DNA of 64,000 nt, taken from contig JADGBR010000008.1 in the NCBI GenBank assembly GCA_015231405.1, positions 25,216 through 89,215 on the forward strand, written 5' to 3'. Positions 29,090 to 50,715 of the stretch are shown in pieces (position 1 is the stretch's first letter; each line of letters starts with the position of its first letter). The notes under the pieces were generated by a model. The model worked only from the letters and a program-made list of their open reading frames with translations, had not been told where the DNA came from and made no database searches. Both the position numbers and the translations under genes were made by a program. This stretch comes from Candidatus Omnitrophota bacterium. Lineage in GTDB: Bacteria; Omnitrophota; Gorgyraeia; Tantalellales; Tantalellaceae.

Positions 29090-30538
29090 ATGAAGCGTCA
29101 GCATGAAAAGGCCATAATAAAGGTAAAGGTGTTCCTTGACGCGGTGATGATAGGGGCGGCTTTCCTGGTTTCTTTTGAATTGTCGCAGCTCATGCGCTTG
29201 ACTTACAGATCAGATGTTTTCGGAGGGGACCAGTTTTTTACGGCACCCGCCTATCTCTCGCAGTATTTGCCTTCGTTGTTTCTGTGGATACCCATATGGA
29301 TGCTGATGTTCTACCTGAACGGCAAATACCGTTCCTTTAGGAGAAGGTCTTTGGCAGATATATTCTTTCTTGTGGCCAGGACGGCGGTGATGTCATTTTT
29401 GTGTTTCGGCGGCGTAGCGTTTCTCCTTAAGATACAGTTTTTCAGCAGATTCTTTACTGTTATCTTTCTGGTGATAGCGTGTATCTTCCTTGTGGCCGAA
29501 CAGCAGCTGTTAATATTGTTCTCTCGCCGCATCTGGCGAAAAGGTTATGACGATTACAATATTCTGATCGTCGGGACGGGTAGAAGGGCCGGGGATTTTA
29601 TTAAGACGGTAAAAGATAATCCGGATTGGGGGTATAAGATACTTGGTCTTCTTGACCAGGACGAAGAAAGGGTAGGTCAAACATTTTACGGAGTTGAAGT
29701 TATTGAACACTTGTGGAATTTAAAGAAAATACTGCTTTCCGCCGTGGTCGACGAAGTATTCTTTATCGTACCCAGGCTCCAGCTCCATGCGCTTCAGCCG
29801 TACATAACTTTGTGTGAGCTCCTGGGAATAAAAGCGAGCGTCGCCGCGAATTTTTACGATCTCAAAATAGCGCGTGTCTACCAGGAGGAGATAACCGGCC
29901 AGCCCTTTATGACATTCGCCGTAAAATATGGAATGGATTTTCACCTTTTTCTGAAGAGGCTCATCGATATTTTTGGTTCATTGACAGCTATGGTCCTGGC
30001 TTCGCCTATCCTCGTGACAACGGCAATAATGGTCAAGCTGACATCCCCTGGTCCCGTATTTTTCATGCAAAAAAGAAAAACGCTTAACGGACGAGTGTTT
30101 ATTATGTATAAATTCAGGTCCATGTACAAAGACGCCGAACAAAAGCTTGTCGAGTACATGCACCTTAACGAGATGGACGGTCCTGTATTTAAGATTAAGG
30201 ACGACCCGAGGATCACGCCTATCGGGAAATTTATCCGTAAGACCAGCATAGACGAGCTCCCGCAGTTATACAATGTCCTCATAGGTGATATGAGTCTCGT
30301 CGGGCCGCGCCCTCCGATCCCCTACGAGGTCACAAAATACAAGATCCATCAAATAAGAAGGCTAAGCATGCGCGGCGGTATTACATGTCTCTGGCAGATC
30401 AGGGGCAGGAATATGTTGAGCTTCGACAAATGGATGGAATACGACCTTGAATACATAGACAATTGGTCACTTCTGCTCGATATCAAAATACTCCTCCAAA
30501 CCATCCCTGTGGTCCTCTTTGGCTCTGGAGCAAGATAG
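29090..30538 (+). CDS. Polyprenyl-phosphate hexose-1-phosphate transferase (WbaP/EpsB-type initiating sugar transferase)
   Basis: N-terminal TM helices, a central NAD-binding-like linker, and a C-terminal bacterial sugar transferase domain (KRLIDIFGS...PGPVFFMQKR...KFRSM...DELPQLYNVLIGDMSLVGPRP). AGGAG ribosome-binding site. Confidence 0.85.
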   Translation: MKRQHEKAIIKVKVFLDAVMIGAAFLVSFELSQLMRLTYRSDVFGGDQFFTAPAYLSQYLPSLFLWIPIWMLMFYLNGKYRSFRRRSLADIFFLVARTAVMSFLCFGGVAFLLKIQFFSRFFTVIFLVIACIFLVAEQQLLILFSRRIWRKGYDDYNILIVGTGRRAGDFIKTVKDNPDWGYKILGLLDQDEERVGQTFYGVEVIEHLWNLKKILLSAVVDEVFFIVPRLQLHALQPYITLCELLGIKASVAANFYDLKIARVYQEEITGQPFMTFAVKYGMDFHLFLKRLIDIFGSLTAMVLASPILVTTAIMVKLTSPGPVFFMQKRKTLNGRVFIMYKFRSMYKDAEQKLVEYMHLNEMDGPVFKIKDDPRITPIGKFIRKTSIDELPQLYNVLIGDMSLVGPRPPIPYEVTKYKIHQIRRLSMRGGITCLWQIRGRNMLSFDKWMEYDLEYIDNWSLLLDIKILLQTIPVVLFGSGAR

Positions 30539-30597: not shown

Positions 30598-30625
30598 TTG
30601 ACAATTTTTTTTTCTATGTTAAAAT
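30598..30625 (+). promoter_or_regulatory. Sigma70-like promoter, TTGACA-16nt-TGTTAAAAT (extended -10), upstream of the giant gene
   Basis: TTGACA at 30598-30603 and TGTTAAAAT at 30617-30625. AT-rich UP-like tract upstream. Confidence 0.4.
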
Positions 30626-30681
30626 AACTAAAAGTAAAAGTGCGGTAATTGTTCAACTTAATAAATCCTACGAGTTCAAAT

Positions 30682-33600
30682 ATGCGTAAAAACAGCATTA
30701 TTATAAAGGTTATTTCTCTTGCTATTGCTATACTTTTCACCCATGAACAAATAGGATGGGTGCAGGATGGTATTCCAGTATGGACTGATCTTCCCGATCA
30801 TAATAAAAATAAAATTGACACGAGAACCTCTAACATAGAGATACCAAATTACCTGGCCGAAGTTAAAAGTGACATACTGCCGGATTCCACTAGAGAGATC
30901 ATCCATATCCAGGACACGCATGCTTCTTTATCTGCCCAGGAATCGATAGCAACGATATTAGACCAATTAGCCTCAAATTATGACGTAAATTTAATTGGGA
31001 TTGAAGGGGCTGAAGGTTTTATCGATACTTCGTTACTCCGTTCAGTTCCAGATAAAAAAATAAGAGAAAATACAGCCAGATATCTAATGGAAAACGGTAA
31101 ACTAAGTGCAAGTGAGTTTTTCTCTGCCACAAGCGATAAAGACAATATCCTTTTGGTTGGTATTGAAAAAGATTCTCTTTATGAGAAGAACCTGGCGGGT
31201 GTCCGGGGGTTAGTAGAGAGGCGGGACGCTTATGTGAATGAAGTGAGGAAACTGCAAAGAGTTCTGGATCAGTTATCTGAGAATATTTATTCGAAAGAGT
31301 TGTCACAATTCGAAAAGCTTTCAACCGGTCATAGAAAAGGCAATGTCAGCTTCCCCGAATATTATAAGGGTTTGATCTCATTATTTTCCGATGACGGGAA
31401 GATCCTGGAAAAAACCGGTAATTCTGAAAATATCAGGAAGTTATTCAGTACCATCGAACTGGAAAAAAATATCGATTTTAAAGAAGCTAATGCCGAGAGA
31501 GAGCGGCTCCTGGATATACTAGGTAAGACGGCGGATAGGGATACGTTAGAGACGCTTGTCGGGAAAGTCGTATTATTTAAAGAAAAAAAGATATCGCAGA
31601 CCGATTTTTACTCGTATCTTGGCGATCTTGCCGCGGTGAATGGTTTGGATCCCGGGGGATATATCAATTTTATTAAGTACACGCAATACATCTCATTGTA
31701 CAGCGATATAGATATTCTCGCTCTTTACCTCGAAGTCGAAACTTTGGAGGAGAATTTAGTAAAGCAGTTATACGCGAATAAAGACCAGGAAGAACTCTAC
31801 AAATGGCGAAGGCTGGTACAGCTTTTTGTCCAGTTATACGATATGGAGTTCAGTAACGGCGATTTCGAGTATTTGTGCCGGAAAATGGACGGTATTAAGA
31901 TATCGGATCTGGAGGTTTTCCTTAAAGAAACCGCTTCTAAGTTGGGGCTTGCGATACATGAGCCTGTAAACCCCGCGCGCATCATAGAGGGCGTCGCCCC
32001 GGCGATAGATTTTTACCGGGTAGCGGAAGATCGGAATAAAAGCATGATAGATAACACCATCGCGAATATGCGTAAAGAAGGGAAGAATATCGCCGCGTTG
32101 GTGACAGGCGGATTCCACACCAAAGGGCTCACGAAATTAATAGCGGAAAATAACCTTTCATGCCTTGTAATTACCCCGAAATATGAGGAAGGCAAAGAGA
32201 GGCCGTATATAGCGATACTAACGAATAAGAAAAAACCTTACCAAAAACTTCTCGATTCCGGCAAATATGAGATAGCCGTGCGAGCGTATTTCGGGAATAT
32301 GGACGAGGAAAAGCTGTTCGAGATCGTGCTTCCTTCCCTCGCCCAGGTCGTTGCTAAAGGTGGTAATTGGAAGGAAGAAGCTTCGAAATACGCCTCCGTG
32401 TACGGTAAAGAAAGAGAGAGAGTTATGGCCGGGGATCGTCAGTTCGCGGGTCATAGCCTTACGGTTGAAGAATTCAGGAAGTATCTGGGCATAGATGATG
32501 TTGGCGCGGATAGATTGGATATAAGAAAACTTAATGACGGCAAAGTTTACACTAGACGCGTGAAAGAGAACGGTGAAGTTGAATATCTCGCGTGGGGTAT
32601 ATTTACTAACGGAGCGGTTATGTCGCCGTACCCCATCTCTGTCAGGAAAGGGAATTTGCTTTGGTTCGGGCTGCATTTTAGCATTAGGATCCCATTGAAG
32701 AACTTGATAGCCCCGCATATGGACGACGCGGTATACGCTTTACGTGTTGCCTGGTGGGTGGAAAGCATTCTCTTCTTTGTGATCCCGGTTGTTCTACCCA
32801 TAGGCGGTTTATATTTGATCACCGGTTCGATCCACCCGATCTGGCCGATATTTTCCATAATATTGACCGTGCCTTTAAGATGGACAGTTTTTAAGAGCCA
32901 TCCCGATGTAGAGGAGATAAAGTTCGTTGACGCGCTTAGAACGGTTATAACGAGGGAACCGTTACGGAATGTTACCCTGCCAAGGAAAAAATATATAGCG
33001 CCGTTGGATATCTCTTTCGCCGGTATGTTCCTGTCGGTTATCCCTCTTTTATCCCCCTTGGTCAATGTGACTTCCGCAAATGGCGCGATATCAGCGTCTG
33101 TTGTCATGGTGGGTTATCAGTTGTTCAGAGAGATCATGGCCATAACGCGCGGAGAAACACCCGGGGTAATGCAAGATGACTCTGAAGCCAGATCTCCGAA
33201 AAGCGCCAGGCACATAACGAAAGAGAAATATGACCACTTGGTATATGATCCTAAAAGGCTGGACATAGTATTGTGGAAAAAACACAGGGCCAAAGTCGAG
33301 GATATTAAAGGTGGTAAAATAACATTCTCGGGAGCTGACTGGTCAAGTTCTGAAGACGCCTCTTTGGGCAAGGAAACTAAGTTGCGCGCATATTTTGACA
33401 TAATGATAGACAAGTTATGCGACGGGCTTGGCGGGGTCCTTGCCGGTAATATCAATATCGACAAAACGGAACTTAAGAAAAAGATGGGGTTGATCATAGA
33501 CAACTCTTTTGAGGGAAATAGGGACGCAGCTCTCAAATGGTTCGATGGGATAAAAATGAACAAAGAGAATAACTTTGAGATAGTCCTTAATCCGCGGCAG

Positions 33601-36600
33601 CTAAAAACCGGGTCAGGGATCGGCATGCTTTCCAGTCTGGATCTACCCAAATGCGTTCTAAATATGGATCTTGGGATGTTGTACGCGGTAACGGATAGCG
33701 ATGTCCTGAACGCTCTGATCGCGATGACATTAGGCGCACAATTCCTGGGTTTTCTCTACAGGCATGACCAGGTCATGCTGAAGAATGGCGTCGGAGACCG
33801 AGGCGGATCCGGAGGGACGGACCCCTTTATTAGTTCGCCCCAGAAAGACAATAAAGGCGAAGTCATAACTATGACCGAGTATGATGCCCTGAATATGAAG
33901 TGTATCCAGGATGATCTTGCCGGAGCGGCCGATATTTTTGACAGGATCAACGATTTTATTTCGGATGTAAAACACCCTTCGGAAGTTTATTTTACCGCAA
34001 ATTACAAATTAGCACGCGAAAATATCCCGAGGTTTTTAGGAAATTTTTCCCCGGATATTCCGGATTCGTTAAGGCGTGAGAACGCGAGGTTGAAGCGCGT
34101 CGGGCGATATGAGATCGGCGGGGTGCTCGGAGCTGGAGGTATGGGGATAGTCTTATACGCCCGTGATCATGAGACGGGAGATCGTGTAGCGATAAAAATG
34201 ATAAAGAACAGCGCGGGGTCCGCGCCGGATGCAAATCTGCTTAACAGGTTCGAACTTGAAAACATCTCCGGGCAGTTGATAGATGACAGCCGCGTCATTA
34301 AAAGCAGGGGTAAATATACTTATACGACACAAGTCGCTGAGAATGTCAAGTTAACGTACGACTACATGGTGCTCCCTTATATCCCTTACTATACTTTGAC
34401 CGAATATATGGAAATTGTTAAGTATTCATCCCGCGGCGGCGGGTTATCAGCTGCCGATATGGCCAAAGTGTTTGAAGAGACTATCGTTCCGATCTTGGGG
34501 GGATTGGATGTCATCCATGAAAAGGAATTTATACACCGTGACATAAAGCCCGACAATGTAATGGTTGACCCCGACGATCACGGGAAAGTGATCATAATGG
34601 ACATGGGATTGTCGAGAAAACTCGATGACGAAAAAACAAGGAATACTTTAGAAGGCCAGGTGCTGGGGAGCAAAGATTATATTTCTCCCGAACAATCAAA
34701 AGACGCCGGTTCCGTTACCAGAAGGACGGATCTATGGTCTATGGGTGTTATATTGTACGAGATAGCGACCGGGAGGAGACCGTTTATCCATCAAAAGCTA
34801 TTGGATCTGCTTATCGCTATCCAAACAAAAGAACCTATACCCCCATCCGCGATCAACCCGAACGTCGACCCGGAATTGGAAAGGATAATTTTAAAAGCTT
34901 TAACAAAGGACGAAGACCAGCGCTACCAGACAGCACAGGAAATGATCGACGATCTGCAAGCGTGGGTAGCCATGGAAAAACCAGAAATAAAACGGGTAGA
35001 ACCAAATGACACAGCCCCGATGTTAACCCCTCGTCAGGCCGGATCAGACGGGGCCATCTCCGGCCTGGACCTGACCCCGCCAAGCCGACAAGCAATAGCG
35101 GCGGAGAAAAGCGGAAAAAAGAAAGTATCAAGAAAACAATTCATAGCGGTAATGCTGCCTATCATTGTACTCACCTTTGCAGCGGTCTGGGCAATAGGAT
35201 GGTACGGAATTATCCCCTTTTTCATGTGGCTCCTGAAAAAACTCGCGAAAACCACCACAGTTCCCGTCGGTCCTACAGAAACATCGGGCAAGTCTGATGA
35301 ACAACCCGCGATACAAACCGATAATCGCGCCCTTTTGTTTGGCGGAAAAACCGGATACTTTGACTGCGGCGATTCTAAAGGGCTGGCGAATGTCTTTGAT
35401 GGCGGGGGTACCATAAGCTTTTGGATGAGTTCTGACGATTACAGGGGAAGGGTAATAGATAAAAAAACATGGGATATAAGTTTTGCGGGCAATAGAGAAC
35501 AGTTAGTATTTACGTATCGGTTCGATGGCAGCAATGATTCGGCCAGATGGGAGTATTTCGGGAATGCGATCTCTCATTATGGTTGTAATCATATTGCAAT
35601 AAGCTATGATTCATCAAATCCTCAAATTAGTCCAAGGTTTGTTATTAATGGACAACTTGAAACTAACGTGAAAATGATCAAACCGGCAATAGGCAAAAGG
35701 ATCGATGACGCGAATCATCATCTGTGCGTGGGTTTGCCTGATGGAAATTACACTTTTAACGGTACGATCAGAGACGTTGCTGTTTTTAAGGAAGAATTGC
35801 CTATAGACTATATAGCGGGGATACATACGAGAGGAATAGATCAAAGACGAGAGGGTATAGAAAAAGAAAGTATGGTAGGGTACTGGCGTTGTGATGAAGG
35901 TGATGGCGATACGGTGTATGATGCAACATCAAGTGGAAATAATGGGATAATGCCGGAGTTGACTGACCAAAGGCCGGTTTGGGTGAAGATGAAGGTATTA
36001 ACGGAGAATGTAGGCACTTTGTTATTTGATGGTCTGCGAGGGCGAGTAAAAGTTATTAGCAGTGCGGCAATTACAAATATTTTTCGCAATTCGGGAAAAA
36101 TTGAATTTTTACTTTTCCCGAACGAGAAGGGCCCTAAGTTTTCCGCTGTCTTGTCCAAAAATGACCTGGTTTCCGAGTATGGTATATACACGGCCGATTT
36201 TAACAAAGGTTATTTGATATATTTGGACCGGGAAAATTCAAATATCGTTTTTGAACATGGTTTTTCCGAAAAGGGTGGTAGGTGGGTAACTGAATCTGGA
36301 AGTATAAGTTGGGGGCAGGTATTGCGCGTGGAATTTGAATATGACGCTACTTCTGTCAATAACGATCCGGTTATCCATATTAACGGAAAAAAACAGGTTC
36401 TCTATTGTGAAAATCGTCCTAAGGGAGTTTGCGGGAATGATGAGGAGATCCCGTTATTTATCGGGGATAGCCAAATAAAGGAAAATACATATTCTGGGCA
36501 AATAGGACGGTTGTCTTTTTACAGGAAAGAAGGGAATGGGCCATTTAAGCCTGTTGCTAAATATAATTTTGGAGAGGAGGCCGGTTCACGGGTAAGTGAT

Positions 36601-37914
36601 GCCATAGGCCATAACGATGGAAGCCTGGAGCCGCCTGAGCATATTCCAAAAAGAAAGATTATCCAAGAAAGAAAATGGGTCAGACTGGATTCGCACCTGT
36701 GGGTGTTGTTGCCGTACTTTATAACTCTTGCTACAGGATCCATGCTGCCGCTGCTTACGGTAGCTCTTATTGCGTGTGTGCTAAAAGCCGCCCAACTAAG
36801 CAGACGAAAAAACGTAGAACAAAAACAAATTCTGGTAGCCATTCCGGAAAATGCTTATGATGCTCTTAGCGCAAAAGATAAAGAAAGTTTGGGGGCTTTC
36901 AGTAACGCAAAAATTCTGCTATTTGATAATGGTATCAGCAACGAATACCTTGCTTTAGAGCTGGAGAGATATATTAGAAGGGACGGAGCGTTTGGCGCTA
37001 TTGTCCTTGATTATGAGGGTGATGGACCAGCATACGTTAAAGCTATCGGGTTGTTCATTGACGGCGTAAGTGAAGCCACTAATTTATCGCCGAGTAAATC
37101 CGGAACGAAAATTCAAAATATCAAAAGATTAGGAAGGATGTCCCAACGGGAATGGCGGGTACGTCTCGGTGCCCAAGGATCTGGATTGGAAGAATTAGTT
37201 TCGTTCCGAATATCGGAGCGGAATATATTTGATGAGAATCTGTGGCGACTAACCGCGAAAACCCGTTCAAAGATAAAACCATCCAATGCAACAATGAATT
37301 ATTTGCGTGTCGGGCCACAAGCCAAGGAACAACGTTGTGTGAGTATCGCCGTTAGGACAGTAACGGATATGCGCTCTATAGCTGAGATTCTCGGAAGGGT
37401 CGGCGCTGAAGGAACCGATAAAAGAAAGATCTTGGAGTATTTGCAGCTCAGAGTATCAATAAGCGGAGTGGATAAGTATAATATAGCGGATTACATGTAC
37501 AAAACCGGTCTTGATAAATATCTTGAAGTGGAGAACATTCTTTTCGTATCAGAAAAAACTACTTTTGCAGAAACTCTTCGTGACATAAGGACAGTCGAAA
37601 AATATTCAAGCATAAGAGACAGCCAGATAGTTGTGGGGGATTATAGGGATTTTTCGATCGAGTTGACGGCAAATACCCCGAAAGATCCGGAAGCAGCGCC
37701 TCTGTATGTGCAAATGAAGGGCCCAGGTCTTGCCGGGCAGCTTCTATTGGCGGTAATAGGAATTATCAACAATGAAAAAATGGATAAAAGATTAGGCCAT
37801 TCATTTGAAAAAGGTCAGAGGTGGTTTGAATTCCTACCGAACATAGGCGAAAATAACATCGAGACCCTTCGAGAGATGATCAATTGTGCCCAAAAAGCCC
37901 AAAGCATGGCGTAA
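30682..37914 (+). CDS. Giant (~2410 aa) multidomain membrane protein: TIKI/TraB/GumN-like N-domain, TM cluster, Hanks-type Ser/Thr kinase, TM, two LamG domains, TM, and a C-terminal domain of unknown function
   Basis: Kinase motifs GAGGMGIVLYA, VAIKMIK, HRDIKPDNVMV, DMG (DFG-like), ISPE and DLWSMGVILYE. Two Laminin_G_3-like units (LLFGGKTGYFDCG...GTISFW...HIAISYD...FNGTIRDVAVFKEEL and LLFDGLRGRVKV...IGRLSFYRK). N-terminal IIHIQDTHAS ... ALVTGGFHTKG is reminiscent of the TIKI/ChaN/TraB fold. The ORF-track start at 30649 is a TTG; I prefer the ATG at 30682. Confidence 0.75.
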   Translation: MRKNSIIIKVISLAIAILFTHEQIGWVQDGIPVWTDLPDHNKNKIDTRTSNIEIPNYLAEVKSDILPDSTREIIHIQDTHASLSAQESIATILDQLASNYDVNLIGIEGAEGFIDTSLLRSVPDKKIRENTARYLMENGKLSASEFFSATSDKDNILLVGIEKDSLYEKNLAGVRGLVERRDAYVNEVRKLQRVLDQLSENIYSKELSQFEKLSTGHRKGNVSFPEYYKGLISLFSDDGKILEKTGNSENIRKLFSTIELEKNIDFKEANAERERLLDILGKTADRDTLETLVGKVVLFKEKKISQTDFYSYLGDLAAVNGLDPGGYINFIKYTQYISLYSDIDILALYLEVETLEENLVKQLYANKDQEELYKWRRLVQLFVQLYDMEFSNGDFEYLCRKMDGIKISDLEVFLKETASKLGLAIHEPVNPARIIEGVAPAIDFYRVAEDRNKSMIDNTIANMRKEGKNIAALVTGGFHTKGLTKLIAENNLSCLVITPKYEEGKERPYIAILTNKKKPYQKLLDSGKYEIAVRAYFGNMDEEKLFEIVLPSLAQVVAKGGNWKEEASKYASVYGKERERVMAGDRQFAGHSLTVEEFRKYLGIDDVGADRLDIRKLNDGKVYTRRVKENGEVEYLAWGIFTNGAVMSPYPISVRKGNLLWFGLHFSIRIPLKNLIAPHMDDAVYALRVAWWVESILFFVIPVVLPIGGLYLITGSIHPIWPIFSIILTVPLRWTVFKSHPDVEEIKFVDALRTVITREPLRNVTLPRKKYIAPLDISFAGMFLSVIPLLSPLVNVTSANGAISASVVMVGYQLFREIMAITRGETPGVMQDDSEARSPKSARHITKEKYDHLVYDPKRLDIVLWKKHRAKVEDIKGGKITFSGADWSSSEDASLGKETKLRAYFDIMIDKLCDGLGGVLAGNINIDKTELKKKMGLIIDNSFEGNRDAALKWFDGIKMNKENNFEIVLNPRQLKTGSGIGMLSSLDLPKCVLNMDLGMLYAVTDSDVLNALIAMTLGAQFLGFLYRHDQVMLKNGVGDRGGSGGTDPFISSPQKDNKGEVITMTEYDALNMKCIQDDLAGAADIFDRINDFISDVKHPSEVYFTANYKLARENIPRFLGNFSPDIPDSLRRENARLKRVGRYEIGGVLGAGGMGIVLYARDHETGDRVAIKMIKNSAGSAPDANLLNRFELENISGQLIDDSRVIKSRGKYTYTTQVAENVKLTYDYMVLPYIPYYTLTEYMEIVKYSSRGGGLSAADMAKVFEETIVPILGGLDVIHEKEFIHRDIKPDNVMVDPDDHGKVIIMDMGLSRKLDDEKTRNTLEGQVLGSKDYISPEQSKDAGSVTRRTDLWSMGVILYEIATGRRPFIHQKLLDLLIAIQTKEPIPPSAINPNVDPELERIILKALTKDEDQRYQTAQEMIDDLQAWVAMEKPEIKRVEPNDTAPMLTPRQAGSDGAISGLDLTPPSRQAIAAEKSGKKKVSRKQFIAVMLPIIVLTFAAVWAIGWYGIIPFFMWLLKKLAKTTTVPVGPTETSGKSDEQPAIQTDNRALLFGGKTGYFDCGDSKGLANVFDGGGTISFWMSSDDYRGRVIDKKTWDISFAGNREQLVFTYRFDGSNDSARWEYFGNAISHYGCNHIAISYDSSNPQISPRFVINGQLETNVKMIKPAIGKRIDDANHHLCVGLPDGNYTFNGTIRDVAVFKEELPIDYIAGIHTRGIDQRREGIEKESMVGYWRCDEGDGDTVYDATSSGNNGIMPELTDQRPVWVKMKVLTENVGTLLFDGLRGRVKVISSAAITNIFRNSGKIEFLLFPNEKGPKFSAVLSKNDLVSEYGIYTADFNKGYLIYLDRENSNIVFEHGFSEKGGRWVTESGSISWGQVLRVEFEYDATSVNNDPVIHINGKKQVLYCENRPKGVCGNDEEIPLFIGDSQIKENTYSGQIGRLSFYRKEGNGPFKPVAKYNFGEEAGSRVSDAIGHNDGSLEPPEHIPKRKIIQERKWVRLDSHLWVLLPYFITLATGSMLPLLTVALIACVLKAAQLSRRKNVEQKQILVAIPENAYDALSAKDKESLGAFSNAKILLFDNGISNEYLALELERYIRRDGAFGAIVLDYEGDGPAYVKAIGLFIDGVSEATNLSPSKSGTKIQNIKRLGRMSQREWRVRLGAQGSGLEELVSFRISERNIFDENLWRLTAKTRSKIKPSNATMNYLRVGPQAKEQRCVSIAVRTVTDMRSIAEILGRVGAEGTDKRKILEYLQLRVSISGVDKYNIADYMYKTGLDKYLEVENILFVSEKTTFAETLRDIRTVEKYSSIRDSQIVVGDYRDFSIELTANTPKDPEAAPLYVQMKGPGLAGQLLLAVIGIINNEKMDKRLGHSFEKGQRWFEFLPNIGENNIETLREMINCAQKAQSMA

Positions 37915-38109: not shown

Positions 38110-38661
38110 ATGGAAATTTCCAATACTCAAATACCTGGGTGTTATAAGATCATTCCAAATATTGTGAAAGATCATAGGGGTGAATTTGTGAAGATATTTC
38201 GTAAAGATATTTTCATGGAACATTGTTTGGAGACAGATTTTGTTGAGGAGTATTATTCATGTTCTTGCCGTAATGTATTGAGGGGGCTTCATTTCGGTGT
38301 CCCGCCGGCTGATCACGCCAAGGTTGTTAATTGCGTTTATGAGGAAGTGATGGATGTGGTCGTTGATTTGAGGGTTGGATCAGAAATGTTCGGTAAATAT
38401 CAAGCGTTTGAATTGAATGCCGCGAACGCTATCGGGATGTATATTCCAAAGGGTCTAGCGCATGGTTTTTACGTAAGAAGCGATATGGCCATTGTTGTTT
38501 ATCGCACTACGTCAGGGTATTCGCCTCTTTGTGATACGGGAGTGCGATGGGATTCTGCGGGCATACCCTGGCCCGGAACATCTCCTATAATGTCAGCGAG
38601 GGACATCGGTTTAAAACCTTTAAATCATTTCGACAGCCCTTTTAGGTATGTCTGTAAATGA
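38110..38661 (+). CDS. NDP-4-keto-6-deoxyhexose 3,5-epimerase (RmlC/AscE-like cupin)
   Basis: RGLHFGVPPADHAKVVNCVYEEVMDVVVDLRVGSEMFGKY matches the RmlC-family core (RGLHFQ...KLV.c..G...DVaVDlR). Confidence 0.7.
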   Translation: MEISNTQIPGCYKIIPNIVKDHRGEFVKIFRKDIFMEHCLETDFVEEYYSCSCRNVLRGLHFGVPPADHAKVVNCVYEEVMDVVVDLRVGSEMFGKYQAFELNAANAIGMYIPKGLAHGFYVRSDMAIVVYRTTSGYSPLCDTGVRWDSAGIPWPGTSPIMSARDIGLKPLNHFDSPFRYVCK

Positions 38662-38692
38662 CCAAGAAATATAGTTCTAAGAATCTTCGAGC

Positions 38693-39685
38693 ATGAAGCA
38701 TCTAACATATCTTGAACATGATGGTGCGGATGACAGGACGATCTATATCTCCTGCAGCAGCAGTAAGGAATTTGTCTTGCCGCTTACTGTAATGCTGGGA
38801 TCACTCTTCGCGCATGTTGACCGATCGTGGAAGGTGGTCGTTTATATTTTTGACGGCGGGATGCGGACTTCCGATCGCAACAGGATGTTGCGGTCTCTTA
38901 ATACAAAAAATGCAGACATTAAATTCCTAAAAATTAGAGATCACGCTCAATTGAAGGGCCTTGAAACCGAGGGACACTTTTCGATAGCATCAAGCTACCG
39001 TGTTATTGGGACCATGATGCTGCCGAAATCTATCACTAAAGTTATTCATCTTGACTCAGATGTTATTCTGAGTGAGGATATTTCAAAACTTTGGAGTGTC
39101 GATATCGGTGAGAACTATGTGCTCGCGGTACAAGAACAGGGAAAGGATCATCAGTATGTTTCATCTAAGGGTGGTATGGTTCATTACAGGCGTTTCGGCA
39201 TTGACCCGGGAACTAAATACTTTAACGCAGGAATAATGGTGATAAACCTCGAAAAATGGAGACAGGATAGCATCGCTGAAAGGACCATTGACTTTATGCG
39301 TGAAAATATTAAATATATCCAATGGTATGATCAGGACGCTCTTAACGTGGTTTTGGCGAATAAATGGGGGGAGTTGGATCATCGATGGAACCTTCTTACG
39401 CAGATATTCTCGAATTCCGGTTGGGAAGAAGGCCCCCTTGAGAGCGAAAAGAAATACAGAGAGTTAGTGGAGCATCCCTACATTATTCACTTCAATACCC
39501 CCGGTAAACCTTGGCATTTTGATGACGTGCATCCTTATAGGAACTTATTCATAGAGAACCTGAAAAAGACCCGGTGGTATTGGACGTGGAAACTGCAAAT
39601 GTGGAAAAGTTGTTTCGTAAAATATCTTCTACCCAGGGGATTCACTCGGTTCGTTAAGAAAATGTTATTATCGAAAAATTACTAA
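38693..39685 (+). CDS. Glycosyltransferase family 8 (LPS alpha-1,3-glycosyltransferase-like)
   Basis: HLDSDVIL DxD motif, FNAGIMVINLEKWR and YDQDALN, the GT8 signature. Confidence 0.7.
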   Translation: MKHLTYLEHDGADDRTIYISCSSSKEFVLPLTVMLGSLFAHVDRSWKVVVYIFDGGMRTSDRNRMLRSLNTKNADIKFLKIRDHAQLKGLETEGHFSIASSYRVIGTMMLPKSITKVIHLDSDVILSEDISKLWSVDIGENYVLAVQEQGKDHQYVSSKGGMVHYRRFGIDPGTKYFNAGIMVINLEKWRQDSIAERTIDFMRENIKYIQWYDQDALNVVLANKWGELDHRWNLLTQIFSNSGWEEGPLESEKKYRELVEHPYIIHFNTPGKPWHFDDVHPYRNLFIENLKKTRWYWTWKLQMWKSCFVKYLLPRGFTRFVKKMLLSKNY

Positions 39686-39713
39686 GTCTGACTGAAGTGC
39701 CGGAGGAAATGCT

Positions 39714-41039
39714 GTGAATAAGATGGGAAATGAGAAGAATATTAGAAAATTGATCCAAGAGAATGTTAGGCAGATCGCCAATATCAGGCAAGGGATAGGG
39801 AGATTCATCCCGGGGAAAACCCATATAACCTATGCCGGGCGAGTTTATGACGAAAAAGAATTAATGTCGTTAGTGGACGCCTCTTTGGATTTCTGGCTGA
39901 CTGCCGGTAGATACGCGCACGAATTTGAAACAAAATTCTCCAAATTTTTGGGAGTGAATTATTGCGTATTAACAAATTCCGGATCTTCGGCGAACTTATT
40001 AGCCGTCTCTGCCTTAACATCTCCGTTGTTGGGGAAGAGGAGGCTCAAGGCAGGAGATGAAGTCATTACTACAGCTTGCGGATTTCCTACCACATTGAAT
40101 CCGATCATCCAGAATAAACTTAAACCGGTTTTCCTTGATATTGACCCGAATACTTATAACATTCAGGTTGAAAAGATCGAGAAGGCTCTATCCCGAAGGA
40201 CCAAGGCGATCTTTATTGCCCATACATTGGGTATTCCCGCTGATGTAGAAGCGATCCTTAAGATAGTGAGAAAGCATAACCTGTGGTTCATCGAAGATAA
40301 TTGTGACGCTTTAGGTTCGAAATACGGAGAGCGCTTTACAGGGACTTTTGGGCATATCGCGACCCATAGTTTTTATCCAGCGCATCATATTACTATGGGG
40401 GAAGGTGGGGCTTTGCTTACCAACGATTCTTTGCTGAAGAGGATAATTGTCTCTTTCCGCGATTGGGGTCGTGATTGCTGGTGCGAATTGGGGCATGATA
40501 ATGCCTGCGGAAAAAGATTTTCCAGAAAATCGGGTCAATTGCCTTTTGGGTATGACCATAAATATGTGTATTCTCACATAGGCTACCATTTGAGCGTTAC
40601 TGATATGCAGGCGGCTATAGGCTGCGCGCAGCTGAAAAAGTTGCCTAAATTCATCGCCGCGAGAAAAGGAAACTTTATGTATTTATACGACCGCTTGACT
40701 AAATATAAAGATTATTTTGTTCTGCCGCGATTGTCGAAAAAAACTGATCCAAGTTGGTTTGGTTTTCCTGTTTTGGTAAGATCGGACGCGCCATTTACAC
40801 GTAATGAAGCAGTATGTTATTTGGAAAGTAAAAAGATAGCGACAAGGATGTTGTTTGGGGGGGATTTAACGAAACAGCCTGCTTACCGGGGAATTAAATA
40901 CAGGGTTGCCGCCAAATTGACTAATACGGATTTAGTGATGAAGAATTTATTTTGGATTGGTGTATACCCAGGCCTATCTAGGGAGATGTTGGATTATGTC
41001 TTGGAATGTTTTGATGGGATGTCGAAAGAATTAAAATGA
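39714..41039 (+). CDS. rfbH: CDP-6-deoxy-D-xylo-4-hexulose-3-dehydrase (E1; DdhC/RfbH/AscC-like, PMP- and 2Fe-2S-dependent)
   Basis: DegT-family fold with SFYPAHHITMGEGG (His in place of the PLP-lysine) and a CWCELGHDNAC C-x-C-x7-C iron-sulfur motif. Length 441 aa. GGAGG ribosome-binding site before the GTG start. Confidence 0.8.
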   Translation: MNKMGNEKNIRKLIQENVRQIANIRQGIGRFIPGKTHITYAGRVYDEKELMSLVDASLDFWLTAGRYAHEFETKFSKFLGVNYCVLTNSGSSANLLAVSALTSPLLGKRRLKAGDEVITTACGFPTTLNPIIQNKLKPVFLDIDPNTYNIQVEKIEKALSRRTKAIFIAHTLGIPADVEAILKIVRKHNLWFIEDNCDALGSKYGERFTGTFGHIATHSFYPAHHITMGEGGALLTNDSLLKRIIVSFRDWGRDCWCELGHDNACGKRFSRKSGQLPFGYDHKYVYSHIGYHLSVTDMQAAIGCAQLKKLPKFIAARKGNFMYLYDRLTKYKDYFVLPRLSKKTDPSWFGFPVLVRSDAPFTRNEAVCYLESKKIATRMLFGGDLTKQPAYRGIKYRVAAKLTNTDLVMKNLFWIGVYPGLSREMLDYVLECFDGMSKELK

Positions 41040-41097
41040 CATATCTCATCGCTCGGTTCGGTTGGACCCCGGGTCAAACGGCTTACAGGAGAGTAAA

Positions 41098-41868
41098 ATG
41101 AAGGTTGTGATCTTAGCGGGGGGGCAGGGTACAAGGCTTCAGGAAGAAACCGTGGTTAAACCCAAACCAATGGTGGAGGTGGGCGAAAAACCTATTCTGT
41201 GGCATATAATGAAGATTTACGCTGCGTCTGGATTTAACGAATTTGTGGTTGCGCTCGGATATAAGGGGGAATGGATAAAAAAATACTTCCTTAATTACCA
41301 TCAGCTCGATCACGATTTCAGCATTCACACAAAGAACGGGCATATTGATATGCATGACGGTGATTATGAAGACTGGATAGTTCATCTTGTCGATACCGGC
41401 TATAAAACACAGACAGGTGGTCGGCTGAAAAGACTCAAGAAAATTATCGGCGGTGAAACGTTTATGATGACATATGGCGATGGAGTTGCGGATATTGATC
41501 TGAAAGAGTTATTGTCTTTTCACCGTCATAACGGCAAACTGGCAACAGTAACGGCGGTAAGGCCCGAAGCCAGGTTCGGCGAAGTGATATTTAATGGAAA
41601 TATTGTCGAACGATTTGTCGAAAAACCGCAGCTTGGCGAAGGCTGGATAAGCGGAGGTTTTTTCGTCCTTGAGCCGCAGGTATTGGATTACATTGACGGG
41701 GATGATACAATTTTTGAAAGGAAAAGCATGGAGCGACTTGTCTCGGATGGACAGCTTGCCGCTTTTCAGCATAACAATTTCTGGCATTCAATGGATACCA
41801 TGAGGGATGCGAAATTCCTTAATGATATTTGGGCGAAAAACGAGGCTCCATGGAAGGTGTGGAAATAG
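41098..41868 (+). CDS. rfbF: Glucose-1-phosphate cytidylyltransferase
   Basis: MKVVILAGGQGTRLQEET...PKPMVEVGEKPILWHIMK matches the RfbF/DdhA N-terminus. Confidence 0.85.
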   Translation: MKVVILAGGQGTRLQEETVVKPKPMVEVGEKPILWHIMKIYAASGFNEFVVALGYKGEWIKKYFLNYHQLDHDFSIHTKNGHIDMHDGDYEDWIVHLVDTGYKTQTGGRLKRLKKIIGGETFMMTYGDGVADIDLKELLSFHRHNGKLATVTAVRPEARFGEVIFNGNIVERFVEKPQLGEGWISGGFFVLEPQVLDYIDGDDTIFERKSMERLVSDGQLAAFQHNNFWHSMDTMRDAKFLNDIWAKNEAPWKVWK

Positions 41869-41870
41869 AC

Positions 41871-42938
41871 ATGCGGCAACTGAACATATATAAAGGAAAA
41901 AAAGTTCTGGTAACGGGACACACCGGGTTTAAAGGGTCGTGGTTAAGTATCTGGCTTACCGGGCTGGGAGCTAATGTCACGGGATTTTCGCTCCAGGACT
42001 GGGAGAATGACTATCTTTTTAAAAAGGCGAGGCTTTCCGGACGCCTTAGCGATGAAAGGGGTGATATCAGTGACCTTAAAAGGCTTGGGGAAGTATTTGC
42101 ACTCCATAAGCCCGATATCGTGTTTCATCTCGCCGCGCAGCCGCTCGTCAGAGATTCTTACCGTGACCCAGTTAAAACATTTCTGACTAATACGATGGGT
42201 ACGGTTAATATCCTTGAATGTATTAGAAGCTCGGCCCATGCGGTTTCTGGGGTCATTATCACTACTGATAAATGTTACAAGAACAGGGAACAGAGCATTG
42301 GCTATAAAGAGACGGATGTGCTTGGGGGGCACGACCCTTACAGTGCCAGCAAAGCGGCCGCTGAACTTGTGATCGACTCATACAGAAATTCGTTTTTCGC
42401 TGATTCCGGAAAACTTGTGGCTTCTGCGCGTGCTGGCAATAATCTGGGTGGAGGCGATAATTCGAAGGACAGGATAATGCCGGATTGTATATATGCGTTG
42501 AAGGAAGGTCGGGCCATAGCGGTTAGGAATCCTGATTCGACGAGGCCATGGCAGCATGTTCTAGAACCTCTTTATGGATATATGTTGTTGGGATACGGTC
42601 TCTTATGCGGAAAAGCAATATTCGCTGATTCATGGAACTTTGGTCCGGAGAAAGGTTCTATTGTGCCCGTTTCGAACATTACAGATCTGGTGGTCAAATA
42701 CTGGGGAAGCGGACGGTGGATAGATTCGCATGACCCGGATAGTCCCCACGAGGCGAAGCTTCTCAGCCTCGATATTTCTAAAGCGGAAACGATATTGGGA
42801 TGGAAGCCGAAATGGAATATAGAAAAGACCGTAAAAATGACGGTAGATTGGTACAGGAACGTCGATAAGTGTGATGCATACCGGTTGTGTATGGACCAGA
42901 TCGAGGAATATGTTGATGCGGGAAAAGAAAACGATTAG
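41871..42938 (+). CDS. rfbG: CDP-glucose 4,6-dehydratase
   Basis: KKVLVTGHTGFKGSWLSIWL Rossmann motif, YSASK catalytic motif, and a length typical of RfbG. Start chosen at the ATG just after the rfbF stop. Confidence 0.8.
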   Translation: MRQLNIYKGKKVLVTGHTGFKGSWLSIWLTGLGANVTGFSLQDWENDYLFKKARLSGRLSDERGDISDLKRLGEVFALHKPDIVFHLAAQPLVRDSYRDPVKTFLTNTMGTVNILECIRSSAHAVSGVIITTDKCYKNREQSIGYKETDVLGGHDPYSASKAAAELVIDSYRNSFFADSGKLVASARAGNNLGGGDNSKDRIMPDCIYALKEGRAIAVRNPDSTRPWQHVLEPLYGYMLLGYGLLCGKAIFADSWNFGPEKGSIVPVSNITDLVVKYWGSGRWIDSHDPDSPHEAKLLSLDISKAETILGWKPKWNIEKTVKMTVDWYRNVDKCDAYRLCMDQIEEYVDAGKEND

Positions 42939-43821
42939 GTCCCGGATCGGGAGGGTGTTGATAATCGGGGCTGCCGGCCTTATTGGAAGTGCCTTGCACA
43001 AGGTGTTTCTAAAAGAGGGTTATAATGTTTTAGGCGTTGACCGCGATCCGTTAATTGAAAATATTGCACTCGTTGACATTAACGATATTCGTTCTCTTGC
43101 ATTTCCTATTTCGCAATTTCAGCCGAATACAGTTATTTTAACAGCGGCCTTGACTTCGGCTGATTATTGCGAAATACATCCTGATGAATCTGAGAAAGTT
43201 AATATCGGCGGTTTAATGAACGTGATCGACAGTTTGCGCGGTTTTTCTGTAAAATTTGTATTTATCTCAAGCGACTATGTTTTTAATGGCATCTCTGGAC
43301 CGTATTCGGAGGATGATCCCACGGATCCATTGTCAGTTTACGGAAAGCATAAACTGGCAGGGGAACGTATCGTTAAGTCAGAGATGCGGGATCATTTGAT
43401 AGTGCGCACTACCTGGGTATATGGCACCGAGATAAAAGGGAAAAACTTCGTCTGTAATTTGATTCGCAGGGTCGGACAAGGCGAATTTGTAAAAGTTCCG
43501 ACCGACCAGGTCAGCACTCCGACTTACGCGTATAATCTGGCTCAGGCAATTGAAGAATTAGTTCATACGAATAAGGCCGGAACATATAACATCGTCGGTG
43601 ACGAACGTATGGGCAGATTCGATTTTGCGAATTCCGTATGCGAAGAGTTTGGGCTTAATAGGAATGCTATTCTTCCTGTCTTGACCGAGGAATTTAATTC
43701 AGCGGCTCCACGTCCGTTGTTGGCCGGCCTTATAATCGATAAACTCAAAAATAATTGTTCTGTCAAAATGTTGGGAGTAAAGGAAGGGTTAGCGGAGTTC
43801 AATCTGGAAAGATCATTATAA
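42910..43821 (+). CDS. RmlD-like NAD(P)H-dependent sugar-nucleotide 4-reductase (AscF/paratose-synthase-like)
   Basis: VLIIGAAGLIGSAL Rossmann motif, YGKHK (YxxxK) catalytic motif and TTWVYG motif, an RmlD substrate-binding-domain-like family. The start is ambiguous (ATG at 42910 or 42916, or GTG at 42955). Confidence 0.6.
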   Translation: MLMREKKTIRSRIGRVLIIGAAGLIGSALHKVFLKEGYNVLGVDRDPLIENIALVDINDIRSLAFPISQFQPNTVILTAALTSADYCEIHPDESEKVNIGGLMNVIDSLRGFSVKFVFISSDYVFNGISGPYSEDDPTDPLSVYGKHKLAGERIVKSEMRDHLIVRTTWVYGTEIKGKNFVCNLIRRVGQGEFVKVPTDQVSTPTYAYNLAQAIEELVHTNKAGTYNIVGDERMGRFDFANSVCEEFGLNRNAILPVLTEEFNSAAPRPLLAGLIIDKLKNNCSVKMLGVKEGLAEFNLERSL

Positions 43822-43836
43822 AATCGTTGGCCGGGT

Positions 43837-44454
43837 TTATTTAGTATCTTTGAATGCTACAAGCTGAATTCCTAGGCTGGGAATAAGCCTTGGGATAGAA
43901 CCAAGAAGAGATCGGCCTGGTAATCGGTCCAGGACACGTGCAATAATACTACTAGGGTTTCCGAGATCTACTCCAATTAGCTTATACCCTCTTTGTTTGA
44001 AAAAGCGTCTTGAGATATAACTGCGATGAGCTTCGTATTGGTTAAATCCGGATGGTGTGGTAAGCCCTTCTCGGGAAAAAGGGTAGTTAGGAGTAGAAAA
44101 TATAATTCGTTCCTTTGCACGACTCTCAAGTAAATCAACAACCTCATTCACGTTTTTTTGTTCCAAATGTTCCAGGAATTCGATGGCTAAAACAGTATCC
44201 CAGGAGCCATTAAGATCCGAGGGTAGTATTTGTTGCCACGTTCTTCTGTACCAACCTGATCTGGCGCAAATCTCGACATTAGGCGTAAATGCGTCCAAAC
44301 CATCGACAGACGGCGATTTTGTCAAACCAGCTTCCCAGGAATTTGTACTGATAAGATGGCCCCAAAGGCCATATCCACAAGCCACATCAAGAACACTTTC
44401 ACCTTTAATAAGTTTTATCACTACTGGCGGGAGTGAACAGGGACATGAACCCAT
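43837..44454 (-). CDS. Class I SAM-dependent methyltransferase
   Basis: VLDVACGYGLWG motif I. The only minus-strand gene in this segment. Confidence 0.6.
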   Translation of the reverse strand: MGSCPCSLPPVVIKLIKGESVLDVACGYGLWGHLISTNSWEAGLTKSPSVDGLDAFTPNVEICARSGWYRRTWQQILPSDLNGSWDTVLAIEFLEHLEQKNVNEVVDLLESRAKERIIFSTPNYPFSREGLTTPSGFNQYEAHRSYISRRFFKQRGYKLIGVDLGNPSSIIARVLDRLPGRSLLGSIPRLIPSLGIQLVAFKDTK

Positions 44455-44712
44455 ACCAATGCTCCTTTGTTATATTGTGGTTTTAGAATATTCATACAAT
44501 CAACTATAATGAAAAGCGGATCAAAATCAAGAAAATGAAATTTGATAGATCGCAGCGAGGGTTTAAGATTTTACACTGGAAATATTTTACTTTCCAACTT
44601 TATAATGTAAACTTTTGTGGGGACCTAATTAGTGAGTGCGTGCCTATGTGGTTAATGCCCGGGTAATAATGGCGGAAGCAGACTGAGTAAGAACGTCCTA
44701 TAGGATAAAATT

Positions 44713-45819
44713 ATGAAGTATGATTATTTGGTCGTTGGCGCGGGTTTGTTTGGATCAGTTTTTGCTCATGAGGCAAAAAGTAAAGGTAAGAAAGTAATTG
44801 TTTTGGAGCGACGGGGCCATATCGGAGGGAATTGTTACTCATATGATTTTGAGAACACCGGAATAAATATTCCAAAATATGGGGCGCATATATTTCATAC
44901 TACAAGCAAAGAAATATGGGACTATTTCGGTAAATATGCGCAATTCAATCGGTATCAACATCGTGTGCTCACAACTTACAAAGACAAGGTGTATTCAATG
45001 CCCATTAATCTTTCAACGATCAATAACTTTTACGGTGTAAATCTGAGGCCATTTGAAGTCGATGAATTTATGAGATCGACGAGATATATCGATCGTGAAC
45101 CGGATAATTTTGAGGATAAGGCGGTAAGTTTGATAGGGAAAGAACTTTACGAAGCTTTTATTAAAGGGTATACAGTAAAACAATGGGACTGTATGCCGAA
45201 GGACCTCCCTAAGGATATTATGGGCAGATTGCCCGTGCGTAATTCTTTTTTTGATTCATATTACAACGATAACTATCAAGGGATGCCGATAGGTGGTTAT
45301 ACCCCAATATTCTCACAACTATTGGAGGGTGTGGAAGTTATATTAAATACAGATTTCTTCGCTAAGAGAGCGTATTGGGAGTCAATAAGTGACAATATTG
45401 TTTTCACTGGTCCAGTTGATAGATTTTATGATTACAAATGTGGGAAATTGCGATGGAGATCGCTGAAGTTCGAGATCGAAAGATTAAATCTCGCAGATTA
45501 TCAGGGGACAAGTGTTATGAATTACCCGGAAATAGAGATACCTTACACGAGGATAATTGAGCCCAAACACTTCTATCGAGAGAGACAAATTGTAGACGAT
45601 TGTACGGTTATCATTCGTGAACTTCCGATCTCAAATGACGATGAGCCATACTATCCAGTAAATTTAGACGATGATCGCTGTAAGTACAGTGAATATGCAA
45701 AAATGCAAAAAAAAGAAACAAATGTTATTTTTGGCGGCAGATTGGCGGAATACAAATATTATGACATGGATCAGGTAGTTAGCGCAGCTTTGAACCGATC
45801 CAGGGAATCCTTGCGTTAG
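44713..45819 (+). CDS. glf: UDP-galactopyranose mutase
   Basis: YDYLVVGAGLFGSVFA FAD-binding motif, GGNCYSY and GAHIFHT; Glf signature and a length of 368 aa. Confidence 0.9.
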   Translation: MKYDYLVVGAGLFGSVFAHEAKSKGKKVIVLERRGHIGGNCYSYDFENTGINIPKYGAHIFHTTSKEIWDYFGKYAQFNRYQHRVLTTYKDKVYSMPINLSTINNFYGVNLRPFEVDEFMRSTRYIDREPDNFEDKAVSLIGKELYEAFIKGYTVKQWDCMPKDLPKDIMGRLPVRNSFFDSYYNDNYQGMPIGGYTPIFSQLLEGVEVILNTDFFAKRAYWESISDNIVFTGPVDRFYDYKCGKLRWRSLKFEIERLNLADYQGTSVMNYPEIEIPYTRIIEPKHFYRERQIVDDCTVIIRELPISNDDEPYYPVNLDDDRCKYSEYAKMQKKETNVIFGGRLAEYKYYDMDQVVSAALNRSRESLR

Positions 45820-45841
45820 TGCGCAAGAAAGGTGCGAGCTA

Positions 45842-46741: not shown

Positions 46742-46762
46742 ATTATATTCACTTTCCACAAA

Positions 46763-47749: not shown

Positions 47750-47753
47750 GATG

Positions 47754-50706: not shown

Positions 50707-50715
50707 AAGAGTAAT

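Follow-up and report, generated by a model that had tools for sequence, protein, structure and literature searches.

The window analyzed here, a stretch of 64,000 nucleotides from a Candidatus Omnitrophota bacterium (GenBank assembly GCA_015231405.1, contig JADGBR010000008.1, positions 25,216 to 89,215 of the forward strand), contains a giant gene on the plus strand that lies within a polysaccharide locus. The analysis confirms that the gene is real and that its product of 2,410 amino acids joins a domain of the TIKI fold, a Ser/Thr kinase and a pair of lectin-like LamG domains in one chain; this architecture is near certain. The ends of the protein, which are unannotated in current databases, form a recognizable head and tail common to thousands of long Omnitrophota proteins, between which the kinase and LamG domains are carried.

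Domain organization of the giant gene product

The single open reading frame (ORF) of about 2,410 codons reported in a first-pass annotation of the sequence is indeed unbroken. The frame spans 30649..37914 (plus strand) with no stop inside; it contains an in-frame TTG at 30649, and the likely start is the ATG at 30682. The N-terminus of a homologue (P0002) aligns with the query from residue 1. The product is 100% identical to an NCBI entry named "MAG: protein kinase [Candidatus Omnitrophica bacterium]" (P0001; 94.6-kb contig). The GC content across the ORF is even (0.41–0.46). A second, independent metagenome-assembled genome (MAG) contains a fragment (P0161) that shares 61% identity with residues 1–841 and is broken off at the end of its contig; the fragment includes both the transmembrane (TM) cluster and the junction between the head, the TM cluster and the middle region. 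The gene and its features, all on the plus strand, are as follows.

30682..37914, +, giant gene, ATG start, 2,410 residues
30697..30753, +, N-terminal signal-peptide-like helix (residues 6–24, after MRKNS)
30820..32304, +, head, predicted TIKI/erythromycin-esterase-superfamily alpha/beta core (residues 47–541)
32305..32751, +, head extension (residues 542–690), helices and a small beta domain (strands, model residues 588–628)
32758..33147, +, TM cluster of 3–4 segments (residues 693–713, 716–733, 772–794 and 801–822)
33172..34086, +, orphan juxtamembrane region (residues 831–1135), upstream of the kinase
34108..34941, +, Hanks-type Ser/Thr kinase domain (residues 1143–1420; Pfam, NCBIfam and motifs)
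35140..35235, +, TM helix after the kinase (residues 1487–1518); the preceding flank is rich in lysine and arginine (EKSGKKKVSRKQ)
35299..35841, +, LamG/ConA-like domain 1 (Laminin_G_3 above gathering score)
35914..36636, +, probable LamG/ConA-like domain 2, a diverged tandem copy (internal repeat, weak Pfam stretch)
36703..36783, +, TM helix before the tail (residues 2008–2034)
36787..37911, +, tail, a conserved alpha/beta C-terminal domain of about 375 residues (residues 2036–2410)

The head has the fold of the TIKI superfamily

Residues 25–690, 831–1135 and 2036–2410 match no Pfam or NCBIfam family. An alignment of 27 heads that share 21–47% identity revealed invariant residues H80, Q86, E108-G109, G160, E162, R451, G476-G477-x-H479 and P499, together with a nearly invariant D78 (at least 90%) that forms a D78-x-H80 motif. 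AlphaFold2 applied to this alignment gave a model (pLDDT 79.6, pTM 0.74) in which a parallel beta/alpha core is interrupted by some 300 residues of helical insert and followed by a small C-terminal beta domain. The structures that matched the model are listed below with their scores.

2qgm, Bcr135/136-type erythromycin-esterase-like protein, 9.9
2rad, Bcr135/136-type erythromycin-esterase-like protein, 9.7
2g5g, ChaN, 9.5
5t09, HopBA1, 9.4
6xcq, EreC, 8.8
8bqs_DQ, TraB-family protein, 8.2
5w6l, RRSP (rank 8), 7.6

PMT, HopBA1, Bcr135 and ChaN are listed as TIKI-superfamily structures in the RRSP structure paper, which also describes the 2His/2Glu catalytic pattern of the superfamily and its His-Glu pair (H85/E113 in Bcr135, H3902/E3930 in RRSP; PMC6254334). 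In the query, H80 and E108 are separated by 28 residues, the same spacing as in those two pairs, and D78 occupies the position of RRSP E3900, placing an Asp where the first Glu stands. H479 comes after the last core strand. The pattern is thus represented by D78-x-H80, E108, E162 and H479. As modeled, the head has the TIKI-superfamily fold, the likeness being at the level of the superfamily only, and because its His/Glu active-site pattern is intact, the head is probably a working hydrolase, either a protease or an esterase.

The TIKI/ChaN/TraB/GumN-like fold proposed in the first-pass annotation therefore stands at the superfamily level, where model and motif agree, and falls at the family level. 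PF01963 (TraB_PrgY_gumN) is not among the 25 most-matched Pfam families listed for the 27 heads at E ≤ 10, and the faint matches of these heads (DUF5682, 0.014; ChaN, 0.06) include no significant TIKI-clan family. GumN belongs to the TIKI superfamily, and the annotation had noted its place in the xanthan cluster; since even that threshold yields no TraB_PrgY_gumN match for any of the 27 heads, the association with GumN and xanthan carries no weight.

A Foldseek search with the head returned nothing significant, though Bcr135 tops the list. Searches of PDB sequences with the head profile, LamG region, middle region and tail profile likewise gave nothing significant. Matches to calmodulin and troponin (E ~0.05) fall within the helical insert and were taken as chance. 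The name "succinoglycan biosynthesis protein" attached to 2qgm and 2rad is the depositor's name for Bcr135/136-type proteins and was set aside as evidence for a role in polysaccharide synthesis.

Head and tail frame a large family of long proteins

In a search with the whole protein, the best non-self matches were proteins of 1,300–4,200 residues that each cover 20–28% of the query. Their labels are mostly Omnitrophota, with a few reading Elusimicrobiota, Endomicrobium, Eisenbacteria, Desulfosarcina or Theseobacter. Local BLAST revealed that the common part extends from residue 1 to about residue 540–690 of the query and always lies at the start of the matched protein; the head extension is kept solely in the closest relatives. 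The cargo that follows the head in these relatives is highly diverse in Pfam terms, comprising SecA, GNAT, HEAT, phosphoglucomutase, PFK, PGI, PPDK, M48 peptidase, ABC1, FHA, SpoIIE, GGDEF, RelA/SpoT, HD, radical SAM, sigma-70 region 4, receiver and HATPase_c domains.

To gauge the size of the family, a head profile built from the 27-sequence alignment was scored against 1.84 billion representative proteins (50%-identity clusters). The profile matched 10,436 proteins at E ≤ 1e-3, of which 7,413 reached E ≤ 1e-30; the query itself scored E 9e-171 over residues 47–541. Among the best 150 of the 10,436 matches, the head starts at residue 9–130 in 149, the sole exception being part of a match made up of two stretches, and the proteins range from 521 to 7,834 residues. 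A scan of one-genome-per-species GTDB, made with a 6-sequence head alignment because the 27-sequence one was too diverse, found 78 head loci. Nearly all of these are in Omnitrophota MAGs, some with multiple copies, and the rest carry "uncultured Planctomycetia" labels that all come from one binning project.

The first-pass annotation had described a further TM helix followed by a C-terminal domain with no recognizable motif. Both the helix and the lack of a Pfam match hold, but the domain turns out to be a shared tail. An iterated local search placed it at the C-terminus, or close to it, in 24 other proteins with a head among 257 retrieved, including the nearest full-length relative (P0002); the tail may be a subfamily trait, and many of the retrieved sequences are broken by contig ends. 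In most tail-bearing members a TM helix directly precedes the tail. In one relative's locus (L001, 1-21214), the tail-coding end of a giant gene whose product exceeds 9,042 residues lies a few hundred bases before the next head; in the same locus, P0002 is in turn followed by a further family member (P0018). The same layout of a tail followed by a head appears in L008, L023, L028, L032 and L051 (~8500-9640, upstream of the head match at 10001). Tail-coding stretches that end just upstream of the next head point to tandem arrays arranged head to tail.

The orphan region (residues 831–1135) matches nothing in Pfam, NCBIfam, PDB or the family, and neither this region nor the LamG pair has a relative among the 257 retrieved proteins or 84 loci. 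Residues 1519–2410 have no close relative in GTDB genomes or JGI metagenomes, which were scanned with exact 8-residue patterns that detect close relatives only. A search of a 5.8-billion-protein index with the tail, or with the TM cluster and middle region, returned nothing at all, not even the parent protein, and the search with the whole protein had missed P0161. The index search appears to be blind to internal parts of long proteins, so that the lack of homologues for the middle and LamG regions is a weak negative. Kinase cargo also occurs in P0002, P0051 and P0055, whose kinases share about 31% identity with that of the query and are no closer to it than unrelated kinases.

On these alignments and profiles, head and tail are the common frame of a very large family of long proteins, mostly from Omnitrophota, with interchangeable middles. 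Rather than taking part in polysaccharide synthesis, they probably perform a task that all family members share, such as maturation, processing or anchoring. The head profile allows such proteins to be counted and classified and directs attention to residues H80, E108, E162, R451 and H479. It also raises a concrete question: does the head process or mature the chain, and if so, on which face of the membrane?

The kinase, the LamG pair and the membrane segments

Profile searches for Pkinase and Laminin_G_3, the two families on which the first-pass reading of the middle depended, both returned matches above their cut-offs. Pfam Pkinase (PF00069) matches residues 1143–1420 with E 4.6e-34 and 118.5 bits (cut-off 31.7). 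All of the catalytic motifs listed in the annotation are present: GAGGMG at 1150, VAIK at 1169, HRD at 1285 (HRDIKPDN), DMG at 1307, SPE at 1335 and DLWS at 1350. By profile and motifs, this domain is a complete Hanks-type Ser/Thr kinase that is predicted to catalyze phosphotransfer. The best NCBIfam match, PknB_PASTA_kin (NF033483), spans residues 1141–1508 and runs through the TM helix, with 216 bits against a cut-off of 450; Pfam scans of the protein contain no PASTA repeats. Weak NCBIfam matches to MADS6 and PglW, which might suggest a defence system, are generic kinase-domain matches far under their cut-offs, and that reading was rejected.

Of the two tandem LamG domains that had been proposed, the first is secure: Laminin_G_3 matches residues 1573–1707 with 32.8–38.8 bits, above the Pfam gathering score of 27.6. 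The second copy is only probable. The two halves of the ectodomain align with each other (BLASTP E 3e-4, 22% identity over 148 residues) and the Pfam scan contains a weak second Laminin_G_3 stretch; residues 1707–2003 scanned alone give no Laminin_G_3 match. The pair may bind a ligand, most likely a glycan, although the LamG/ConA-like fold does not guarantee glycan binding.

Hydropathy analysis indicates six to seven hydrophobic helices, at residues 6–24, 693–733 (one or two), 772–794, ~801–822, 1487–1518 and 2008–2034. Three to four of these segments form the TM cluster at residues 693–822, in agreement with the cluster of 3–4 helices noted earlier, and the loop within it (residues 733–771) holds nine lysines and arginines. 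A TM hairpin of about 63 residues (residues 767–830, window 32980-33171) recurs within four other proteins (P0133, P0149, P0150, where it occurs twice, and P0211), which hints at a membrane "staple" that is used repeatedly to separate modules of cargo.

Membrane topology

Around the TM helix that precedes the tail, 12 family members together have 15 lysines and arginines before the helix and 41 after it, which places the tail in the cytoplasm by the positive-inside rule. The lysine- and arginine-rich flank before the helix at residues 1487–1518 likewise places the kinase inside. This predicted arrangement, with the kinase inside, the LamG pair outside and the tail inside, is robust.

The side of the membrane on which the head lies is ambiguous, and the extracytoplasmic head of the first-pass annotation is uncertain. 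The N-terminus resembles a Sec signal peptide, with a hydrophobic stretch of about 13–17 residues present in 205 of 236 family members; its N-terminal flank is the more positive in 189 of them and its C-terminal flank in 4. Set against this signal-like helix are three other kinase-bearing members (P0002, P0051 and P0055) that have no hydrophobic segment between head and kinase, and in many members a lone helix at the N-terminus is paired with cargo that depends on ATP or another nucleoside triphosphate (NTP). In the query, the four segments of the TM cluster and its loop of nine lysines and arginines fit a four-TM bundle, which would place head and kinase on the same side, whereas reading the cluster as three TM helices would place the head outside. 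A hydropathy scan counted an odd number of TM helices separating head from tail in 13 members and an even number in 12, but such a scan is too coarse to decide the topology. The same paradox, in which enzymes of cytoplasmic type are predicted to lie outside, is described in two preprints on Omnitrophota giant proteins (West-Roberts et al. 2023; Nielsen & Lui 2026).

In about one-third of members, the N-terminal helix is directly followed by the motif h-[HY]-Q-Q-[IL]-x-W-A-Q-[GED]-G (for example P0005, P0124 and P0131). The motif resembles a signal-peptidase site cut between A and Q of V-W-A-Q; the query (residues 20–31) reads IGWVQDG.

The adjoining polysaccharide locus

The gene order described in the first-pass annotation was borne out: the giant gene lies between a gene for a WbaP-like priming transferase and genes for nucleotide-sugar enzymes, glycosyltransferases (GTs), Wzy and Wzc.

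29090..30538, +, WbaP-like polyprenyl-phosphate sugar transferase (Bac_transf, 227 bits, and CoA_binding_3)
30598..30625, +, promoter-like site of sigma-70 type with extended -10 (TTGACA-16-TG-n-TAAAAT, 11/12 matches)
38110..59420, both strands, downstream polysaccharide locus (Pfam scans of ORFs)

Downstream of the giant gene, and mostly on the same strand, the order is RmlC, GT8, DegT, an RmlA-like NTP-transferase, a dehydratase, RmlD, a methyltransferase, Glf, three GT1 enzymes, WecG and Wzy, after which Wzc, Wza and a putative beta-barrel protein are encoded on the minus strand. A Wzx/Wzy-dependent locus is represented by its priming transferase, Wzy polymerase, Wzc co-polymerase/kinase and Wza exporter; no Polysacc_synt-type match that would mark a Wzx flippase was found among the scanned locus ORFs. 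There is no plus-strand terminator-like site between the giant gene and rmlC. The promoter-like site, which had been called a strong promoter, agrees with the consensus at 11 of 12 positions, but it is a consensus match only. The number of such sites in the region does not exceed shuffled expectation. GC content falls from ~0.50 (1–26 kb) to 0.35–0.46 across the giant gene and locus (26000–60000) and rises again after 60 kb, a dip typical of variable surface-polysaccharide cassettes.

Four ORFs of the locus (299–356 residues, within 45842-48788 and 53246-54202) have no significant Pfam match and give faint hints of a nucleotide-diphospho-sugar transferase, GH130 and a CheR-type methyltransferase. 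Beside the genes for Wza and Wzc, an ORF of 543 residues (57789-59420, minus strand) matches BBP2_2 (putative beta-barrel porin 2) below the threshold and may encode an outer-membrane partner of the export machinery.

Proposed function and alternative explanations

We favor a model in which the giant gene product is a polytopic inner-membrane protein composed of a phylum-typical frame and a receptor kinase as its cargo. The frame would consist of the signal-like helix and TIKI-fold head at the start and a TM helix and cytoplasmic alpha/beta tail of about 375 residues at the end. The cargo would comprise the orphan region and Hanks kinase in the cytoplasm, one TM helix, and the two tandem LamG/ConA-like domains in the periplasm. 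From residue 1136 to about 2035, the kinase, TM helix and ectodomain follow the standard order of a bacterial receptor kinase, as in PknB. A ligand in the periplasm or at the surface, a glycan most likely, would bind to the LamG pair and alter the activity of the kinase, which would then phosphorylate cytoplasmic targets. Polysaccharide-assembly proteins would be the most likely targets because of the position and strand of the gene, its own promoter-like site and the lack of a terminator before rmlC. Control of capsule synthesis by a receptor kinase has a precedent in PknB of S. aureus, which acts negatively on this pathway (PMC6441080).

We give the whole package, a kinase-LamG receptor unit in the head/tail frame that acts on the adjacent polysaccharide pathway, about an even chance. 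Regulation of polysaccharide synthesis is plausible from the position of the gene in this one genome; taken separately, the link to polysaccharides is tentative and, on balance, somewhat doubtful. If the model is true, a Ser/Thr kinase with a lectin-like ectodomain, set among polysaccharide genes, would offer a compact example of feedback on envelope glycans from an uncultured phylum.

Several observations speak against this model. Within ~10 kb, all 84 related loci lack homologues of the window's WbaP, Wzc, Wza, Wzy, RmlC, GT8, DegT and Glf, so that the co-localization of homologues with polysaccharide genes, on which the first-pass proposal had staked itself, fails for every relative found. 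The closest relative (P0161) lies downstream of hydrolase genes rather than a WbaP gene; one relative (P0006) adjoins, and precedes, lipopolysaccharide-core genes. No relative with the same kinase-LamG cargo appeared among the 257 proteins, the 84 loci or the GTDB and JGI scans, so that conservation speaks neither for nor against the polysaccharide link. LamG domains are common in long Omnitrophota proteins and do not by themselves point to a sensor specific to this locus. The scanned window ORFs include neither a PP2C phosphatase nor an FHA partner, and the DFG motif of the kinase reads DMG, with Met for Phe. The ambiguous side of the head belongs here as well, as does a moderately hydrophobic stretch at residues 1008–1026 (window 33703-33759; VLNALIAMTLGAQFLGFLY; Kyte-Doolittle score 1.62), a possible missed TM helix that, if membrane-spanning, would change the topology model.

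An alternative is a protein that mediates contact with a host or prey cell in an episymbiotic or predatory Omnitrophota bacterium. Here the LamG pair would bind glycans of the partner cell, the kinase would signal contact, and the surrounding locus would be incidental. The gene product, though small, would then be related to the long surface-associated "archaeovorin-like" proteins, and the head/tail family is in the same style as the long multi-domain membrane proteins already described from this phylum. Its relatives lie in tandem head-to-tail arrays and varied contexts rather than polysaccharide loci, long Omnitrophota proteins often contain LamG/ConA-like repeats (Nielsen & Lui preprint), and the drop in GC content from ~0.50 to 0.35–0.46 over the region is as found in variable cassettes. 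Nevertheless, within the locus the gene is flanked by the priming transferase gene and the sugar-nucleotide genes, shares their strand and has no terminator before the next gene, and no observation here points to contact with another cell. We consider this explanation unlikely.

A broader possibility, also on the unlikely side, is that the head and TM-tail are the signature of a phylum-wide system, as yet undescribed, by which long modular proteins are made, exported or cut. The head, found in more than 7,400 clusters from Omnitrophota and a few neighboring phyla, would be a processing hydrolase or an export or maturation device, and the kinase-LamG unit would be cargo that is processed or delivered rather than simply a resident receptor. 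Such a system, if true, would bear on why cytoplasm-type enzymes in this family carry signal peptides.

The first-pass annotation had gone further than our model in treating all four modules, the TIKI/GumN-like domain included, as a single sensor of glycan or envelope cues devoted to polysaccharide synthesis. The position of the gene, the confirmed superfamily fold and the membership of GumN in that superfamily are in keeping with this idea. It fits poorly with the finding that the head and tail are generic modules: the head occurs on unrelated cargo in more than 7,400 clusters, and the C-terminal domain is the shared tail. The missing TraB_PrgY_gumN match in the 27 heads and the 0 of 84 loci with homologues of the window's polysaccharide genes argue the same way, and a dedicated sensor of this kind is quite unlikely.

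We give little credence to a polyprotein, in which the TIKI-fold head would cut its own chain or those of neighboring members and release the kinase unit, much as in MARTX autoprocessing; this process would be compatible with the other explanations. The catalytic-type motif is kept, the fold includes site-specific endopeptidases (Tiki, RRSP), the head stands at the N-terminus of very long multi-module chains, and the West-Roberts preprint suggested that N-terminal C39/S8 peptidases might cleave giant proteins. On the other hand, the superfamily also holds esterases and haem-binding proteins, a periplasmic head could not reach cytoplasmic segments, and neither cleavage sites nor proteomic evidence points to processing. 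Finally, although the source is a MAG without read coverage and residues 842–2410 occur in no second assembly, an assembly chimera or decayed gene is very improbable given the 7.2-kb open frame with intact kinase motifs, the even GC content, the head-TM-middle junction borne out by P0161, and a head at the N-terminus and tail at the C-terminus as is the family norm.

Relation to known proteins

Receptor Ser/Thr kinases and long, membrane-threaded Omnitrophota proteins are both known; the query combines the two. Like receptor kinases of the PknB/Stk1/StkP class, it has a cytoplasmic kinase, a single TM helix and an extracytoplasmic ligand-binding domain. It differs from this class in its lack of PASTA repeats (216 bits against the cut-off of 450), in an ectodomain that consists of a LamG pair with a further TM helix after it, and in the setting of the unit within a chain of 2,410 residues that includes a head of 690 residues, a TM bundle, an orphan region of 300 residues and a tail of 375 residues. 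Plant L-type lectin receptor kinases consist of an ectodomain of the ConA/legume-lectin fold, one TM helix and a Ser/Thr kinase. Their ectodomain is N-terminal, the reverse of the order in the query, and they are eukaryotic, so that the likeness is one of generic fold only.

The head shares its fold and 2His/2Glu-type pattern with the TIKI superfamily (Tiki1/2, TraB/PrgY/GumN, ChaN, EreA-C, Bcr135/136, RRSP and HopBA1) and departs from it in the helical insert of ~300 residues, in the Asp for the first Glu and in always heading very long proteins. The long Omnitrophota membrane proteins of both preprints come from the same phylum as the query and, like it, alternate a signal peptide and/or TM helices with enzyme, signaling and lectin-like domains; their N-terminal regions are reported to be without identifiable domains (West-Roberts et al. 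2023; Nielsen & Lui 2026), and LamG is common cargo in the "multi-enzyme" long proteins (Nielsen & Lui 2026 preprint). Those proteins are at least 10,000 residues long, whereas the query has 2,410 residues and kinase-LamG cargo. "Archaeovorins" reach at least 30,000 residues and contain GT, methyltransferase, glycoside hydrolase, peptidase and NUDIX domains (West-Roberts et al. 2023 preprint); none of these domains appears in Pfam scans of the far shorter query, which was therefore rejected as an Archaeovorin. Term searches of the text of either preprint found no mention of a TIKI-fold head, or of a tail, common to such proteins. The shared head and tail are likewise without description in the searchable literature and absent from Pfam and NCBIfam.

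Other genes in the window

Just upstream of the WbaP-like gene, the minus strand encodes a DUF6036/DUF2204 nucleotidyltransferase-like ORF (26903-27358) and an AsmA-family ORF (27366-28994). Farther upstream, in 2920-6653, a hybrid histidine kinase that carries a CHASE4 sensor domain and receiver domains precedes a stand-alone response regulator. The segment 14861-24680 contains two efflux sets, the first composed of OEP, an HlyD-type adaptor and a major facilitator superfamily transporter, and the second of OEP, a CusB/HlyD-like adaptor with a heavy-metal-binding domain and an AcrB-family resistance-nodulation-division pump.

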